Below, in pieces: positions 1 to 8,739 of a stretch of 10,409 nucleotides of DNA. This DNA is from a virus. Its lineage: Duplodnaviria > Heunggongvirae > Uroviricota > Caudoviricetes. The stretch lies in IMG/VR virus record IMGVR_UViG_2563366831_000007; one strand, 5' to 3'. Under the pieces are notes generated by a model that did no database searches, was not told the origin of the DNA, and saw only the letters and a program-made list of their open reading frames with translations. Position numbers and translations under genes: made by a program. Positions within the stretch are counted from its first letter, which is position 1; every line of letters begins with the position of its first letter.

Positions 1-26
1 GCGGCAGAAAACAACATTTTTTTCAT
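1..26 (-). CDS. 5' end of a gene continuing beyond the left edge; possible bor-like lipoprotein
   Basis: ATG at 26..24 on the minus strand, preceded by AGGA (rc of 34-37) 7 nt upstream. Reads MKKMLFSA..., which resembles the lambda Bor N-terminus (MKKML...) as I recall it. Only 8 codons are visible. Confidence 0.3.
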
Positions 27-95: not shown

Positions 96-121
96 GTAAG
101 CGACTCGTCAGAACCGTATTG
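96..121. repeat. IS66-family terminal inverted repeat (tnpC-proximal end)
   Basis: Begins GTAAGCG, the characteristic IS66-family terminus. About 18/26 match to the reverse complement of 2769-2794. Confidence 0.65.
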
Positions 122-125
122 ATAT

Positions 126-1697
126 TTACTGAGAGCTCAGATCAACTTTCCAGGGCAACAGATCGCGTACCCGGTTTGCCGGCCAGTCCTGGATATGTTC
201 AATGACGTAACGCAGCCACTTTTCTGGCTCCACATTGTTCAGACGGCATGTGCCGATCAGCGAGTACAACACCGCCGCATGTTCACCACCGCTGTCGGAA
301 CCCGCGAACATCCAGTTTTTCCGGCCTACGGCCACTCCCCGTAAGGCGTTCTCTGCGATGTTGTTGTCGATTTCCACCCAGCCATTACTGCAGTACACGT
401 TCAGTGCATCCCACTGTTTCAGCAGGTATGCGAACGCTTTTGCCGTATCTGAGTGACGCGACAGTGTTTTCATCTGTTGCTGTATCCAGTCATACAGTGA
501 CTGCATCAGTGGCGCGGCTCTGGCTTTTCTTGCCGCCAGACGCTGTTCTGCTGAACAGCCCCGGACCTCTGCCTCGATGGCATACAGTTCACCGATACGC
601 TGCAGGGCTTCCGTGGTGATGTAGGTGGGCGCTCTTGCATGCACATCGTGGATTTTTCTCCGGGCATGAGCCATACACGCGGCTTCCGTTATTCTGCCGG
701 ATTCGTATAACGCCCGGTAACCACCGTAAGCATCGGCCTGAAGCACACCGCTGTAACCGGCCAGGTGATTTTGTGGATGGATACCTTTCCGGTCCGGACT
801 GTACGCGAACCAGACCGCCGGGGGCATCTGTGAACCGGCGTTACGGTCATCACGGACGTAGACCCACAGCCGGGCTGTCCGGGTTTTACCGCTGCCCGGC
901 TCCTGGACCGGGACGGGGATATCATCAGCATGGACTTTACCGGGCATCAGCACATACTGGCGCAGGACGTCATACAGCGGCTCCAGCAGTTCAGCAACAG
1001 CACCTGTCCAGCGCCCCAGTGTGGCACGGCTCAGCTCCACTCCCTGACGACGGTATATTTCTGACTGGCGGTATAACGGCAGATGGTCTGCATATTTCCC
1101 GGTGACAACATGGGCCAGAAGCCCCGCTCCGGCATAACTGCGTGCAATGGGTTTTGAAGGTACTGGTGCCTGCACGATATGGTCGCACCGGCAACAGGCC
1201 TGTTTCGGACGTTGTGTTTCGATAACCTTAAAGGCGCTGCTGATAAGCTCCAGTTGCTCTGACACATCACATCCCAGAGAACTGAGTTCACCACCACAGG
1301 CAGGACAGCATTCCTCTTCCGGCCGGATAACCCGGGTTTCACGGGGAAGTGAGGCCGGTAACGGTTTACGGGCTGAAGACTGGCGCAGGGCGGATGGCAG
1401 TACCGGGTCATATTGCTCACCCAGCGTTTCCGCCATTTCTTCCTGAAGTGCGCTGATTCGCTCCTGTGCTTCCTGTATCTGCCGTTCGGTTTTTGCACGA
1501 AGTTTTTCTGAGCTTTTACCGAACTGCATACGTTGCAGTTTCGCAACCAGCGCCTTCAGCCGGTTGATTTCGGAAGCATAAGCCGCCACCCGCTGTGAGA
1601 GCAGGCGGTTGTATTCAGCCATCTGGCGGATGGTGTCCTGTTGCGTCTGCAACAGTGCCCGCAGGCGGGCGTTCTCATGAGCAAGTGAGGTGTCCAT
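126..1697 (-). CDS. tnpC: IS66-family transposase TnpC (523 aa)
   Basis: Full-length ORF with an N-terminal coiled-coil-like region (QLRAL..., [12 protein letters not shown]), a Cys cluster (CPACGG...CCRCDH, zinc-ribbon-like) and a large C-terminal catalytic region. It is the third gene of the tnpA-tnpB-tnpC arrangement. Confidence 0.9.
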
Positions 1698-1716
1698 ATC
1701 CTCACTTTACAACGGG

Positions 1717-2064
1717 TTATATGCGGATTCCAGCGCGTTCCGTTCGTTTCGGGTGCTTCCAGTTGATACCTTCAAGAAGCATGGATAACTGAGCCGGAGT
1801 AAGGTGCACCTTGCCGTCACGGGTGACTGGCCAGACGAAGCGGCCCCGCTCCAGGCGTTTGGTGAAGAGGCACAGTCCGTCACTGTCAGCCCACAACACT
1901 TTTATCTGGTCACCCCGGCGTCCGCGGAAGATGAACAGGTGTCCGGAGAACGGGTCATCCTTCAGGACGTTCTGAACTTTTGATGCCAGGCCGTTAAAGC
2001 CATTTCGCATATCGGTGATACCTGCAACCAGCCAGATACGCGAACCTGCAGGGAGAGATATCAT
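1717..2064 (-). CDS. tnpB: IS66-family accessory protein TnpB (Orf2), 115 aa
   Basis: Contains the conserved IS66 Orf2 motif IWLVAGITDMRNGFNGLA...FIFRGRRGDQIKVLW...DGLCLFTKRLERGRFVWP. Its start codon overlaps the tnpA stop (ATGA at 2062-2066). Confidence 0.9.
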   Translation of the reverse strand: MISLPAGSRIWLVAGITDMRNGFNGLASKVQNVLKDDPFSGHLFIFRGRRGDQIKVLWADSDGLCLFTKRLERGRFVWPVTRDGKVHLTPAQLSMLLEGINWKHPKRTERAGIRI

Positions 2065-2741
2065 CAGTGGCTGCTCCCTTTTATTTCGCGGATAAGTGTC
2101 TGTAATAACGCCGGCGTCAGTTTACCTTTAAGCCTGAGAGTTCCGGCCGGCAGAACCAGCTCACAACACAGACTGTCGGACGGTGTATTTATCTGCTCTG
2201 GTTCCTGTGCGGGGGCCGGGATTTTATTATCCGGCTCCGGCGTTAACGTCACGGGAAGCAGTGCCGGCATATTTTTTCCGGAAGGCAGCAGGCCACCTTT
2301 CCGGTATTGATGGCGCCAGTTGAAGAGCAGGTTATCGTTGATTCCGTTTTCCCGGGCGATCTGCGCCACACAGGCTCCGGGCTGCAGTGACTGCTCCACT
2401 AAGGCGATTTTAAACTCATAAGGGAAGTTGGGCCGCCGGGGACGTTTTTTTACCACGGGGGCTTCGGATATAACGGTGCTTTCAGGACGTACGACTGGTA
2501 CCGTGGAAAATTGTCCGTAAAGGCAGGCATCAAGTTCCTGCTCCGACATGCCTGCGGGCAAAGGCCACGAAAGGCCAGCTCTCCGAAAGCGCACGAACAT
2601 ACTACAAACTGTTGATTTTGGTACACCCAGGCGACGCCCGGCCACAACCCGGGGTAAATGTTCTTCAAAGTGAAGACGTAAAGCTTCAGTGATCCAGGTC
2701 CGGTGTTTCATACGATAGTGTCCATTAAAAATGATGGACAT
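2064..2741 (-). CDS. tnpA: IS66-family TnpA (Orf1), 225 aa as drawn; true start uncertain
   Basis: The C-terminal half (PNFPYEFKIALVEQSLQPGACVAQIARENGINDNLLFNWRHQYRKG) is the HTH-like IS66 Orf1 signature. In-frame ATGs at 2741 and 2711 both lack an obvious SD. The product is longer than the ~130 aa I recall for typical IS66 Orf1. Confidence 0.7.
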   Translation of the reverse strand: MSIIFNGHYRMKHRTWITEALRLHFEEHLPRVVAGRRLGVPKSTVCSMFVRFRRAGLSWPLPAGMSEQELDACLYGQFSTVPVVRPESTVISEAPVVKKRPRRPNFPYEFKIALVEQSLQPGACVAQIARENGINDNLLFNWRHQYRKGGLLPSGKNMPALLPVTLTPEPDNKIPAPAQEPEQINTPSDSLCCELVLPAGTLRLKGKLTPALLQTLIREIKGSSH

Positions 2742-2768
2742 TATTTTTGTAGAGCCGGAGGAAACAGA

Positions 2769-2794
2769 CCAGACGGTTTAAATGAGCCGGTTAC
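2769..2794. repeat. IS66-family terminal inverted repeat (tnpA-proximal end)
   Basis: The reverse complement begins GTAACCGG and matches the 96-121 terminus at about 18/26 positions. It is followed immediately by the TSD copy. Confidence 0.65.
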
Positions 2795-2802
2795 AAATGG
2801 AT
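2795..2802. repeat. Target-site duplication, right copy (AAATGGAT)
   Basis: Exact copy of 88-95, abutting the IS terminus. Confidence 0.8.
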
Positions 2803-2931
2803 TGATGAAAATTAAAACTACACAGGTGAGCTCAGACGATTGGAGGGAGTTGGGGACACTCAGAATCCTGTAGAATGAAATAAACCGGTCTATCCGTCCA
2901 TTACCCTTTTAGCTGCGCTGTATCGTCGCCG

Positions 2932-2996
2932 TATTCCCGCATTAACCATGACCGTAGCCCGACGGGGAATTCCTTCTGCGTGAGTGTGCGGGAATA
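2932..2996. repeat. Perfect 10-bp inverted repeat pair (TATTCCCGCA ... TGCGGGAATA) with a 45-bp spacer
   Basis: 2932-2941 is the exact reverse complement of 2987-2996. It lies in the non-coding region upstream of the lipoprotein gene. Confidence 0.6.
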
Positions 2997-3046
2997 ATTA
3001 AAAACGATGCACACCGGGTTTTTACCGCGTTAATGATTCGCGGATT

Positions 3047-3121
3047 TATCCCGGTGCGATGGTGGAAGAAACCGGAAGCTGTATTACAGAAAGTGCTACT
3101 ACTGTATCCCGATGCGATGTA
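3047..3121. repeat. Direct repeat of a TATCCCG-containing 16-mer (TATCCCGGTGCGATGG / TATCCCGATGCGATGT)
   Basis: Two copies at 3047-3062 and 3106-3121 match at 14/16 positions. They share the TAT(T)CCCG core with the inverted repeat at 2932/2987. Confidence 0.55.
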
Positions 3122-3213
3122 TGTAATGTGAGTCAGATAATGGCACAGGATGTGGTGATGTGGCAGTCTGGAACACAGGATATATTGTCAGAATAAGACC
3201 CGTAGGAATAAAA

Positions 3214-3540
3214 ATGAAAAGACGCCTTTTACTACTTTTTCTGTTATCTGTCCTAGCAGTGGGATGCTCGCAGCAAAAAGCTGATGAGCCCCGGCAATTA
3301 GTGACGGTGTATCCACGATATCCGGAATATGCTGCAGCAAATTATATCAAGGGGCTGGTTGAGGTTAAGTTCGATATTGGTGCTGATGGGACTGTGACAC
3401 GGATCGTTTTTCTCCGCTCAGAGCCTCATAATTTGTTTCGTGATGAAGTGGTGAAGGCCATGGCGAAATGGCGATTTGAAAAGAATCGTCCCTGTCAGGG
3501 AGTGAAGAGACAATTTATCTTTACGCCGTCACGTCCCTGA
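3214..3540 (+). CDS. Small lipoprotein consisting of a TonB C-terminal-like domain (about 108 aa precursor)
   Basis: ATG at 3214 with AGGA 6 nt upstream; the track ORF begins at an upstream GTG (3160), which I consider less likely. The N-terminus MKRRLLLLFLLSVLAVG-C is a lipoprotein signal peptide with a lipobox, and Ser at +2 suggests outer-membrane sorting. The mature part aligns with E. coli TonB residues ~150-225 as recalled (YPxxAxxxxIxGxVxVKFDxxxDGxVxxxxxLxSxPxNxFxxEVxxAMxxWRxE), roughly 40% identity over ~70 aa. There is no TM anchor or Pro-rich spacer. Confidence 0.8.
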   Translation: MKRRLLLLFLLSVLAVGCSQQKADEPRQLVTVYPRYPEYAAANYIKGLVEVKFDIGADGTVTRIVFLRSEPHNLFRDEVVKAMAKWRFEKNRPCQGVKRQFIFTPSRP

Positions 3541-3569
3541 TGCTTCCAGGTAGAGAGGGGCTGGAAGCA
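3541..3569 (+). other. Stem-loop (9-bp stem TGCTTCCAG/CTGGAAGCA, 11-nt loop) directly after the lipoprotein stop codon
   Basis: Perfect inverted repeat starting at the first base after the TGA. No T-tract follows, so it is not a canonical intrinsic terminator. Confidence 0.5.
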
Positions 3570-3632
3570 GGAGAAAAATGAAAGAGCCAGCGGTTATATT
3601 TTTGTCATGGCTGACGAGGAATGATGGAAGAA

Positions 3633-3680
3633 GGCGTTGTATGCCACACAACGCCTCACTGTTCATTTCTTCTTTTTCTC
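3633..3680 (+). terminator. Candidate rho-independent terminator for the lipoprotein transcript
   Basis: 8-bp perfect stem GGCGTTGT/ACAACGCC (3633-3640, 3648-3655) with a 7-nt loop, followed by the T-rich run TCACTGTTCATTTCTTCTTTTTCTC. Confidence 0.5.
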
Positions 3681-3842
3681 TAGTGGAACCCGATGAATAA
3701 GAGTTGCACTGGTTTCCGATGAGATGGCGATATACTCGGGCAAAGTATGCTGGCAGTTTTCCAACTGGTCAAAAATACCTGCTCTCGTCTGTTGCAATGC
3801 CTGCAGCATGCGGCGGCAATGCGCCTTGCTTTTGCTAACCAT
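3663..3842 (-). CDS. Hypothetical small protein (59 aa), low confidence
   Basis: ATG at 3842..3840 preceded by a strong SD-like GAGGAAGGAAAG. Predicted sequence MVSKSKAHCRRMLQALQQTRAGIFDQLENCQHTLPEYIAISSETSATLIHRVPLEKKKK. The poly-Lys tail coincides with the plus-strand terminator T-tract, which weakens the call. The longer 117-aa version from 4016 has no SD. Confidence 0.35.
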   Translation of the reverse strand: MVSKSKAHCRRMLQALQQTRAGIFDQLENCQHTLPEYIAISSETSATLIHRVPLEKKKK

Positions 3843-3903
3843 CTTTCCTTCCTCTATCAGTCGCTGCGTGAACTCATCATGGAATACCAGGTAAATGCGG
3901 ATG

Positions 3904-4155
3904 TTATCGGTTTTGGCTACGCAGCATAGTACAAAACGGACAGGTGCATCCCGGGACGGGGGAGGCGTCACATGTCCCTGTGATGGTTGTTCCGGGTAAT
4001 GCACTGTGTGGGGCATAAAAATGTCCGATAATTTTACTTTCTACCGCAGTTAGTTGATTCGTTGGTCCTGGTAGCACATTGGGCGAGGATTTAAATGCCA
4101 GGCAACTGAAGGATGATGTTGCAAGGGAGATAGCGAGAATATTTCTGATTTTCAT
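3904..4155 (-). CDS. Hypothetical small secreted Cys-rich protein (83 aa precursor), low confidence
   Basis: ATG at 4155..4153 with GAGG 9 nt upstream. The N-terminus MKIRNILAISLATSSFSCLA looks like a signal peptide, and the C-terminus carries a Cys cluster (TGTCDASPVPGCTCPFC). No family recognised. The ORF-track version (106 aa from 4224) has an unlikely N-terminal extension. Confidence 0.35.
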   Translation of the reverse strand: MKIRNILAISLATSSFSCLAFKSSPNVLPGPTNQLTAVESKIIGHFYAPHSALPGTTITGTCDASPVPGCTCPFCTMLRSQNR

Positions 4156-4269
4156 TTGATGATGCCTCTGTGTGAAATGACGGTAAACGACGCACTTGTG
4201 CCGGCACATAATAGCAAGCACCATAATAGATCAGATTCGATTCTTGCTGTAAGTGATAATTATTCTCGT

Positions 4270-4304
4270 TTTTCGGGTCCTTTCCGGCGATCCAACAGGC
4301 TACG
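4270..4304 (+). promoter_or_regulatory. cosQ-containing region immediately upstream of cosN (approximate)
   Basis: The sequence ...GGTCCTTTCCGGCGATCCAACAGGCTACG directly precedes the cohesive-end sequence and resembles the lambda right-end sequence as I recall it. Exact cosQ limits are not determinable here. Confidence 0.5.
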
Positions 4305-4316
4305 GGGCGGCGACCT
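4305..4316 (+). promoter_or_regulatory. cosN cohesive-end sequence GGGCGGCGACCT (terminase nicking site)
   Basis: Exact match to the 12-nt lambda cohesive end. The following CGCGGGTTTTCGCTATTTATGAAAATTTTCCGG (4317-4349) matches the lambda left end as recalled. It sits 188 nt upstream of the nu1 start, against 190 in lambda. Confidence 0.9.
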
Positions 4317-4349
4317 CGCGGGTTTTCGCTATTTATGAAAATTTTCCGG

Positions 4350-4470
4350 GGAAAATCATGTCGGTACTTCTCGAACATAACTATTTGTTTTTTCTAATAT
4401 CGAATCCGTAAAAGGTCCGACATGAAAACGCCTAAAAAAGTCATTTTCGGGCACTTTCATGTCGGCCCCT
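4350..4470 (+). promoter_or_regulatory. cosB with three non-lambda R elements (R3 4352-4364 direct, R2 4417-4429 inverted, R1 4453-4465 direct) and a candidate IHF site near 4378-4390
   Basis: Three copies of (T)TTCATGTCGG are arranged direct-inverted-direct like lambda R3-R2-R1, but the repeat sequence differs from the lambda R consensus (CGTTTCC-type). The AT-rich spacer contains rc AAACAAATAGTTA, one mismatch from the IHF consensus WATCAANNNNTTR. Confidence 0.65.
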
Positions 4471-4492
4471 GTATTTATTGTGAGACTGTTTC

Positions 4493-5012
4493 ATGAAGGT
4501 TAATAAAAAGAAACTTGCCGAAATTTTCAACGTGGATCCGCGAACGATTGAACGCTGGCAGTCTCAGGGACTCCCTTGCGTCTCCGGAGGTGGTAAGGGC
4601 GTTGAATCTGTATTTGATACCGCCATGGCAATTCAGTGGTATGCGCAGAGGGAAGCTGATATCGAAAATGAAAAACTCCGTAAAGAGGTTGTGGATTACA
4701 GGGCTGCCAGTGAGGCAGATCTCCAGCCTGGGACTATTGAGTACGAACGCCATCGACTTACGCGTGCGCAGGCCGACGCACAGGAGCTGAAGAATGCCAG
4801 AGACTCCGCAGAGGTGGTGGAAACCGCATTCTGTACTTTCGTGCTGTCACGGATCGCAGGTGAAATTGCCAGTATTCTTGACGGGATCCCTCTCTCGGTA
4901 CAGCGGCGTTTTCCGGAACTGGAAAACCGACATGTTGATTTCCTGAAACGGGATATCATCAAAGCCATGAACAAAGCAGCCGCGCTGGATGAACTGATAC
5001 CGGGGTTGCTGA

Positions 5013-5038
<26 letters not shown>
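4493..5038 (+). CDS. nu1: Terminase small subunit (gpNu1-like), 181 aa, with a non-lambda N-terminal DNA-binding domain
   Basis: Same length as lambda Nu1. From about residue 66 onward ([60 protein letters not shown]...) it is near-identical to lambda Nu1 as recalled. The first ~65 aa ([36 protein letters not shown]...) diverge. It overlaps A by 26 nt, as in lambda. Confidence 0.9.

Positions 5039-8719
<3,681 letters not shown>

Positions 8720-8739
<20 letters not shown>

Follow-up and report, generated by a model that had tools for sequence, protein, structure and literature searches.

A conserved element behind the lysis genes of lambdoid phages as a candidate structured RNA of the late operon

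The intercistronic RNase III hairpins of phage T7 (R1.1 and others) and the RNase III hairpins of phage lambda (in the N leader and at sib) act in cis on the processing and stability of messenger RNA (mRNA). The put RNAs of HK022 and the nut sites of lambda (boxA/boxB) are cis-acting antitermination RNAs, located just downstream of the early promoters. Linker or boundary sequences have reportedly been proposed as mediators of the exchange of modules between lambdoid phages. Regarding the small RNAs (sRNAs) of prophages, AgvB and AsxR (51-60 nucleotides, nt) are encoded at the moron site just after pR' (PMC4104026), svsR at the 3' end of cI (PMC12803456), and the Pas sRNAs near the capsid and tail genes. 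Here we describe a conserved "post-lysis element" that lies in a 10,409-nt stretch of viral DNA (IMG/VR record IMGVR_UViG_2563366831_000007; "the window" hereafter means this whole stretch). The window is late-region DNA from a lambdoid prophage of Escherichia coli that resembles phage 21, and it is 98.7% identical to phage 21 when its insertion sequence (IS) is set aside. We propose, as the reading that we hold to be the likelier one, that the element would be a module of structured RNA, encoded on the sense strand of the late operon and carried by the Q-dependent late transcript.

A sharply bounded element behind the lysis genes

The element occupies a single place in the window:

2914-3076, plus strand: whole conserved post-lysis element, from 5' TGCGC to 3' ACCGGA, with abrupt ends of the homology on both sides.

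It was the only match in the window to a covariance model built in this analysis (R1; 173.8 bits, E 1.5e-43). Over about 1.3 megabases, R1 found exactly one copy per locus, except in two loci with a second copy (decayed in one of them), and it found no match on the decoy loci. The boundaries are sharp in that the flanks on both sides are unrelated and belong to several families (alignments A2, A3 and A4), while the element itself measures 163-182 nt across copies. In one of the two loci with paired copies (L015), the copies at 5057-5234 and 6007-6184 bracket an inserted gene. The same arrangement occurs in the other (L042), with copies at 12462-12639 and 10704-10854, the second of which is decayed in its 3' half (50 bits). 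Both pairs look like the insertion of a module by recombination at the element.

A similarity search matched the element in 432 phage records, and the phages that carry it include lambda, 21, 434, HK629, many Shiga toxin (Stx) 1 and Stx2 phages, and the Salmonella phages ES18 and SPN3UB. It is also present in 3080 of 5426 complete E. coli genomes (57%), with up to six copies per genome, and no RNA is annotated at the element among the 40 E. coli genome records listed. As located with R1, the lambda copy (46868-47032) lies between bor and lambdap78, and the copy of E. coli K-12 MG1655 (579009-579174) lies between borD and ybcV in the DLP12 prophage. A species-level genome scan found the element only in Escherichia species, Intestinirhabdus alba, a Raoultella and a few tiny contaminant-like contigs, a narrow known range that comes from exact-pattern retrieval, which more diverged copies would escape. 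Near-identical copies were observed on contigs assigned to Pseudomonas yangonensis (L134, 351 base pairs, bp) and Thiomicrorhabdus (L139, 468 bp), and on metagenome-assembled genomes of a Nanosynbacter (L132) and of a member of the Proteobacteria (L143); these four copies are most likely contaminations by E. coli or lambdoid DNA.

The genomic context was examined for 142 copies, 119 of which had enough upstream DNA. The Rz/Rz1 spanin genes precede the element on the same strand in all 119, at a distance ranging from 2 nt to 1.7 kilobases (kb), and 28 copies begin only 2-11 nt past the Rz stop codon. The bor gene stands between Rz and the element in 31 of the 119 copies, the other 88 having no adjacent bor. 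The first recognisable downstream gene encodes a 164-amino-acid small terminase (29 copies), a YbcV-like protein (29, on the other strand), a DUF3950 protein (24, also on the other strand), a TonB-like protein (23) or a Nu1-like small terminase (14). From this variety of downstream genes and the frequent absence of bor, it follows that the element is tied neither to the lipoprotein gene that follows it in the window nor to bor. It is a free-standing module, whose constants are its orientation and its position, with the lysis cassette before it and the packaging genes after it.

Folding of the element and covariation of its helices

When applied to 86 distinct versions of the element, RNAalifold predicted two long-range helices and two hairpins, a small terminal one and one on the 3' side, and the model was completed by inspecting divergent copies. 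In the resulting model, the 5' domain (2920-3010) is a long irregular hairpin (P1-P2-P3-P3a) with nearly invariant internal loops, and the 3' domain comprises two hairpins, of which P5 is variable and P6, with the loop GCGAUGGUGGAAGAA, is conserved. The helices are positioned as follows in the window:

2920-2926, plus strand: P1 5' arm, GTATCGT, which pairs with 3004-3010 (RNAalifold).
3004-3010, plus strand: P1 3' arm, ACGATGC, which pairs with 2920-2926.
2932-2942, plus strand: P2 5' arm, TATTCCCGCAT, i.e. the first arm of an inverted repeat noticed earlier (see below) plus one G·U pair.
2986-2996, plus strand: P2 3' arm, GTGCGGGAATA, i.e. the second arm of that inverted repeat.
2953-2980, plus strand: P3, CGTAG (2953-2957) with CTGCG (2976-2980), which encloses P3a.
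2958-2960 and 2965-2967, plus strand: P3a terminal hairpin, CCC and GGG, with the loop GACG.
3025-3029 and 3039-3043, plus strand: P5 hairpin, CCGCG with CGCGG, the inner part of a nested hairpin noticed earlier.
3051-3075, plus strand: P6 hairpin, CCGGT (3051-3055) with ACCGG (3071-3075), and the conserved loop GCGATGGTGGAAGAA.

The helices vary between copies, and their pairing is maintained by compensatory changes. One P1 pair occurs as U-G (42), U-A (31) or C-G (3), and another as C-G (68) or U-G (13). P2 has 24 distinct arm haplotypes, nearly all of which pair (CCCGCA/UGCGGG, CCCGGA/UCCGGG, CCCGUA/UACGGG, UAUC.../...GAUA), through compensatory changes from U-A to C-G, from G-C to A-U, and from C-G to G-C or U-A. 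P3, which is flanked by invariant GA dinucleotides on both strands (2950-2951 and 2982-2983), has one pair that is C-G in 42 cases and U-G in 40. The P3a loop varies freely (GACG, GACA, UGAC, UUAAU and others) and the stem is kept; two variants show a clean 10-nt deletion, which takes away most of P3a (the third C, the loop and the GGG arm) and the two following bases. In P5 and P6, whole arms are replaced (haplotype table). P5 reads CUGUG/CGCAG, CAGC/GCUG or UCGCA/UGCGA in other families, and the arms of P6 covary (UCCGGU/ACCGGA, 19; UCCUGU/ACAGGA, 17; CUCGAU/AUCGAG, 2; AUGAA/UUCAU, 1; plus G·U variants), phage 21 itself having the hybrid arms CCGGT and ACAGG. The pairings are also retained in the divergent copies from E. 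ruysiae, Intestinirhabdus and Raoultella. The loops other than that of P3a are near-invariant, namely UUAAC...GA opposite GAGUGU, AUCAAAA, and GGAAGAA in the P6 loop. A possible long-range pairing between the UGCGC of the 5' end and the GUGCG of the P6 loop, inspected by eye, is compensated in ES18 but not in lambda and L135, and with such mixed support it was not retained.

Two lines of evidence support base pairing in a molecule of defined polarity. First, 41 pairs were counted in A4, an alignment made with MAFFT from 82 distinct sequences and fitted to no structure, in which 95.0% of the cells form standard pairs. Changes on both sides affect 13 of the 41 pairs, as compared to 5.3 ± 1.4 in shuffles (none of 500 reached 13) and to 3-8 pairs when the partners were slid by 1-3 columns. 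In an alignment fitted to the model, which favours it, double changes affect 19 of the 41 pairs, and the slid controls over both alignments gave 3-11. Second, the cells with G·U on the plus strand number 316, as compared to 32 for A·C, i.e. the cells that are G·U on the minus strand. This asymmetry implies that selection has maintained the pairing in a single-stranded molecule of late-operon polarity, and it argues against symmetric DNA binding sites and against an RNA of the minus strand (from bor or ybcV), a candidate that we disfavoured on this ground. The element thus shows the compensatory and wobble changes beyond those of controls, and the strand specificity, that generally mark a conserved structured RNA.

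The stretch 2930-3125 had been singled out in a sequence-only reading of the window, as either a set of operators recognised by one DNA-binding protein or a structured leader ahead of the lipoprotein gene. Its perfect 10-bp inverted repeat is indeed present (TATTCCCGCA at 2932-2941 and TGCGGGAATA at 2987-2996, with a 45-nt spacer), and a perfect inverted repeat of at least 10 nt was obtained in 14 of 1000 dinucleotide-preserving shuffles of 2930-3125. So is its nested imperfect hairpin (3012-3029 with 3039-3056; 18-nt arms, 72% complementary). The direct repeat is real, with a match of 14/15 in none of the same 1000 shuffles, but it is a 15-mer (TATCCCGGTGCGATG at 3047-3061 and TATCCCGATGCGATG at 3105-3119, 14/15 identical), and not a 16-mer with a second copy at 3106 and 14/16 identities. 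The core words are over-represented, TATCCCG occurring five times in the whole window (0.88 expected) and TATTCCCG twice (0.28 expected), and the count of at least four cores agrees with the four that we found inside 2930-3125. When related loci are compared, as that reading had advised, two of these four cores, i.e. the arms of P2, are conserved outside the phage 21 lineage, and the other two are not. The idea of a structured leader was right about structure, as the 10-nt inverted repeat and CCGCG/CGCGG are covarying, strand-specific helices, and wrong about the lipoprotein gene, the element being an independent module after the lysis cassette. On balance, we consider that most of these repeats are probably the base-paired helices of a discrete structured element, and not operators of the lipoprotein gene.

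The remaining features of this stretch are as follows:

3012-3056, plus strand: outer hairpin CACCGGG...CCCGGTG, specific to the phage 21 lineage and outside the conserved fold.
3047-3061, plus strand: first copy of the direct repeat, made of the junction of a 17-nt deletion, the P6 5' arm and the start of the P6 loop.
3105-3119, plus strand: second copy of the direct repeat, outside the element, in a segment exclusive to phage-21-type (TonB-like) loci.
3059-3196, plus strand: open reading frame (ORF) of 45 codons, annotated in phage 21 as the hypothetical protein CPT_21_72, with its AUG inside the P6 loop.

The pairing of the outer hairpin is broken wherever P6 covaries (CCTGT and TCGAT variants), and we rejected it on this basis as a switch that would pair alternatively with P6. 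In most relatives, the GGG at 3016-3018 pairs with the CCC of a CCCTCAT segment, which is deleted in the window. The phage 21 lineage, including the window, has indeed lost the 17 nt CCCTCATAGTCGCCTGT, which elsewhere form a well-conserved single-stranded linker from P5 to P6; the deletion is located at 3049-3052 of the window (as compared to L065:2515-2693), and becomes apparent on comparison with L065 and with most other copies. L065, a relative without the deletion, has TGTCCGGTGCGATG and TATCCTGATGCGATG as its repeat pair, which are much less alike and differ by an insertion or deletion. The direct repeat is therefore confined to the lineage and may go back to a short, old duplication; we found no sign of a function for it, though it is statistically unusual.

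Proposed role and alternative explanations

The element does not behave as a coding sequence. Among the 82 sequences, the best frame is open in 32, the length differences are not multiples of three, and the variable columns are distributed as 10/15/13 over the three phases, i.e. with no three-base periodicity. The sequence-only reading had seen no long ORF, which is essentially right. The ORF at 3059-3196 is not conserved: it is cut down to 17 codons in the close relative L065 and replaced by unrelated peptides of 6-53 amino acids across families, so that we rejected it as a gene; CPT_21_72 is probably an annotation artefact. Scanning the window for promoters gave no promoter-like site over the element and none on the plus strand between 2700 and 3700, and in phage 1720a-02 (L008) and K-12 the plus-strand promoter-like sites occur only at or past the 3' end of the element. 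Similarly, a terminator scan of the window, L008 and K-12 found none on the plus strand, where P6 is followed by AAGCUG, CGUUAU and similar sequences with no U tract; a weak minus-strand terminator site exists only in the lambda/K-12 variant. A search with the 4227 models of Rfam 15 (E<=10) returned no match over the element in the window (2600-4600 scanned) or in the K-12 copy, and the 1720a-02 copy gave two sub-threshold microRNA matches (E 2.3 and 7.5) that overlap its 3' end. A literature search by sequence strings, by borD together with ybcV, and by the names of neighbouring genes returned nothing on this spot. The riboswitch candidate described near ybcW (PMC4448311) is located between ybcV and ybcW, about 450 bp beyond this spot, and the essentiality map of lambda made by CRISPR interference, in which bor and lambdap78 are non-essential, does not address the intergenic element.

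The sequences show that the element is conserved, sharply bounded, fixed in place and orientation, covarying and strand-asymmetric; we infer that it is transcribed, folds in vivo and acts at the RNA level, and we put it forward as a candidate for a new family of structured RNAs of lambdoid phages. The late operon runs from pR' and Q to S-R-Rz/Rz1, then to the element, and then to cos and the terminase genes, and the RNA would most likely be made within the Q-antiterminated late transcript during lytic growth. Co-transcription with the late operon is suggested by the lack of an own promoter, by the variable neighbours and by the 28 copies that start 2-11 nt past the Rz stop codon. Our best guess is that the element would serve as a cis-acting intercistronic determinant of processing or stability at the junction between the lysis and packaging genes. 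It would thereby separate the fate of the lysis-gene mRNA from that of the stretch that leads across cos to the packaging genes, which is often long and partly untranslated or antisense. Alternatively, it could be excised as a stable non-coding RNA or act as a protein-binding RNA. The near-invariant internal loops exceed what a processing site needs, and this hints at a specific protein, ligand or tertiary contact; features such as the tandem G·A and GGAAGAA would suggest a specific ligand, a protein or a tertiary fold over a simple hairpin.

Several observations weigh against this interpretation. Single-sequence folding is only modestly better than that of shuffles (z = -2.0, -1.3 and -1.1), and the reverse strand of the window copy gave -1.6. 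The family is shallow (effective sequence number 1.59, most copies being 75-99% identical), so that the cells counted above are not independent and overstate the number of independent events, and the fold was derived from the same sequences as those used for counting. One P2 pair is unpaired in 12 of the 82 sequences (U·C in ten 1720a-02-type copies, plus two singleton variants), and the outermost pair of P3 is unpaired in 76 of the 82. Furthermore, no promoter or terminator delimits a transcript; the neighbours of the element in lambda and K-12 (bor and lambdap78 or ybcV) are on the opposite strand; and the very high conservation of the primary sequence of the loops would also fit a role at the DNA level.

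One alternative is a recombination linker, i.e. a shared DNA segment that serves, or simply persists, as an anchor for the exchange of modules, with no RNA function and an incidental structure, an explanation that we regard as unlikely. It accounts for the mosaic of unrelated flanks, for the two loci where copies bracket an inserted gene (the second L042 copy being decayed), and for hybrid arm combinations like the CCGGT and ACAGG of phage 21. However, recombination needs identity and not complementarity, and a linker leaves unexplained why four helices carry compensatory changes, why the wobbles favour one strand by 10:1 and why deletions respect helix boundaries. The element does seem to act as a recombination anchor as well, but this hot-spot status may merely follow from its conservation, of which it is a probable consequence.

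It is also improbable that the element is an independent gene for a trans-acting sRNA, expressed from its own promoter (possibly in lysogens) or excised, and directed at host or phage targets. The homology starts at P1 with no shared promoter, and the Rz stop codon is 2-11 nt away in 28 copies; scans of the window (2700-3700), L008 and K-12 found no plus-strand promoter upstream of the element, and no U tract follows P6. The element is nevertheless an autonomous, sharp-ended module carried by 57% of the complete E. coli genomes, and lambdoid prophages are known for many sRNAs at conserved positions (PMC4104026). Those that could be located, i.e. EcOnc08, EcOnc21 and EcOnc42 (the only three EcOnc sRNAs that we mapped) and, according to the same paper, AgvB and AsxR, lie at the moron site after pR' and not at the element.

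A still weaker case, which we hold for very unlikely, is that of a regulatory region of bor/iss on the minus strand, be it a promoter, an operator or a 5' untranslated region. The element adjoins bor in lambda, 21, 434, Stx2-II and K-12, and in the HK629 record a sigma-70 promoter is predicted inside the element, on the minus strand. However, there is no adjacent bor in 88 of 119 copies, and the HK629 hexamers (TGGACA-N15-TACAAT) are specific to the lambda-type variant and not kept in the majority families, the window having CGGTCA...TACGGC; for these reasons we rejected a bor promoter within the element. The wobbles also fit the opposite strand. In K-12, a PhoP-box-like direct repeat, TGTTTAgggttTGTTTA, occurs on the minus strand at about 578946-578962 (L145 3447-3463), between borD and the element. 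Its position suggests that the bor promoter may be separate from the element, borD being presumably a gene of the Mg2+/PhoP stimulon.

The control of the TonB-like lipoprotein gene by one DNA-binding protein through TAT(T)CCCG operators fares worse again. The four cores within 200 bp are above chance and the direct repeat was reached by none of 1000 shuffles, but only the two cores in the P2 arms are kept outside the phage 21 lineage. The third core was created by the 17-nt deletion, which the first 15-mer straddles, and the fourth is specific to the lineage, as are the second 15-mer and the outer hairpin. The changes in the arms are frequently one-sided (T/C or A/G), which keeps G·U pairing on one strand but breaks the identity of DNA half-sites. 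In addition, the element precedes at least five unrelated gene families, on either strand, a TonB-like gene being found in 23 of 142 copies, and there is no plus-strand promoter-like site in 2700-3700 of the window. This part of the sequence-only reading is therefore highly improbable. Finally, it is hardly credible that the element folds as single-stranded DNA, for instance to signal priming or replication on the strand displaced in late replication: strand-specific pairing, G·T included, is compatible with folded single-stranded DNA, but the orientation is fixed relative to late-operon transcription in every copy, and lambdoid phages are not known to have a single-stranded DNA stage linked to this position.

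Returning to the structured RNA that we favour, we tentatively propose that a functional RNA may have gone unrecognised in the late operon of lambda, its relatives, the Stx-converting phages and DLP12. The element occurs in lambda, the reference system of phage gene regulation, in Shiga-toxin phages and in over half of the complete E. coli genomes. If the RNA is real, it would represent a missing post-transcriptional layer on the 26-kb late transcript, which could account for how the lysis and morphogenesis messages are uncoupled, or a new RNA of the phage-host relationship. It could be a new class of cis-acting regulator of late-mRNA fate, or a processed RNA involved in phage-host interaction. 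Annotation also gains from the present analysis, as the records label this stretch with nothing, with a spurious small ORF (CPT_21_72) or with a predicted promoter (HK629), and R1 provides a marker for where the lysis region meets the packaging region in lambdoid prophages.

Surroundings of the element and comparison with described systems

The other features of the window are as follows:

1-26, minus strand: 5' end of the bor/iss lipoprotein gene (start codon 26-24), aligned to phage 21 bor and named iss in RefSeq.
96-2794, minus strand: IS66-family insertion sequence, ISCro1-like according to RefSeq, with tnpA, tnpB and transposase, between bor/iss and the conserved element.
3214-3540, plus strand: gene of a lipoprotein with a TonB C-terminal domain, one of several alternative downstream neighbours of the element.
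4493-5038: small terminase gene, downstream of the cos region.
5013-6938: large terminase gene, downstream of the cos region.
7138-8739: portal gene, downstream of the cos region.

The order in the window is therefore the end of bor/iss, the IS, a non-coding stretch, the TonB-like lipoprotein gene, the cos region, and the terminase and portal genes. The IS66-family element is 2.7 kb long and is bordered by the two copies of a duplicated 8-bp target, AAATGGAT, at 88-95 and 2795-2802. The insertion lies 119 nt upstream of the post-lysis element; on its other side, about 62-70 bp separate it from the start codon of bor/iss, of which it also lies upstream. The distance of about 130 bp given earlier for the IS is in line with the 120-135 bp or so that we found. 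By contrast, the suggestion that the IS perturbs the native regulation of the lipoprotein gene does not hold, as the IS leaves the post-lysis element intact and separates it from Rz and bor/iss. The insertion has probably severed iss from the control region upstream of it. Any perturbation by the IS would concern the expression of bor/iss and the continuity of the late transcript, and not the regulation of the lipoprotein gene.

Directly upstream of the small terminase gene (4356-4495), we observed three copies of a CATGTCGG/CCGACATG motif in alternating orientation, in a region that also has a 30-nt imperfect palindrome (4409-4438 with 4444-4473). Judging by their position, these motifs are probably the terminase-binding (R) sites of cosB in a phage-21-type cos. 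They gave palindromic microRNA-like Rfam matches on both strands.

In phage 1720a-02 (L008, 1379-1475), and in the KH16-043 type as well, a promoter-like sequence (ATTACA-16-TATCAT) stands directly after the element. It overlaps a Fur-box-like palindrome, AATGATAACCATTATCATT, and is followed about 45 nt further on by a terminator-like hairpin and T run, GGCGCGGAAAAAGGCGCATTTTTT. The region has a weak Rfam match (E 1.9) to the Fur-regulated sRNA PrrF, and it may correspond to an iron-regulated sRNA gene, at the place where phage 21 has the TonB-like gene.

Among the described systems, the RNase III hairpins of T7 and lambda resemble the element in being irregular, with internal loops, and in lying between cistrons with no promoter or terminator of their own, as far as this can be read from the sequence of the element. 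The combination of P1 (7 bp), a 5x7-nt loop and P2 (11 bp), located between Rz and the packaging genes, has dimensions comparable to those of RNase III sites, with larger and more conserved loops. The RNase III sites of T7 and lambda span about 50-60 nt and show little loop conservation, whereas the element spans about 170 nt and has two domains and near-invariant loops.

The put and nut sites act in cis on the very transcript or polymerase that produces them. Like the element, they are structured modules of lambdoid phages and are kept in genomes of mosaic make-up. Unlike them, the element comes after more than 1.5 kb of the late operon and has no boxA/boxB-like arrangement. Its only boxB-like hairpin is P3a, whose loop varies freely and which is deleted in some copies. 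The resemblance of the 5' end and P3a to boxA/boxB was considered too weak to be retained, given the free variation of the P3a loop.

The prophage sRNAs, namely AgvB and AsxR (EcOnc), StxS, DicF, IsrK, svsR and Pas, are likewise non-coding, with conserved places in lambdoid prophages. No Rfam 15 model, irrespective of which prophage sRNAs are represented there, matches the element of the window or of K-12 at E<=10, and the element differs from AgvB/AsxR, svsR and Pas in its location in the prophage. Finally, the element is similar to the linkers of lambdoid phages as a short conserved non-coding sequence with unrelated flanking modules and with duplicates that bracket inserted genes. Linkers, however, are defined by identity only, whereas the element has strand-specific compensatory changes of its base pairs.

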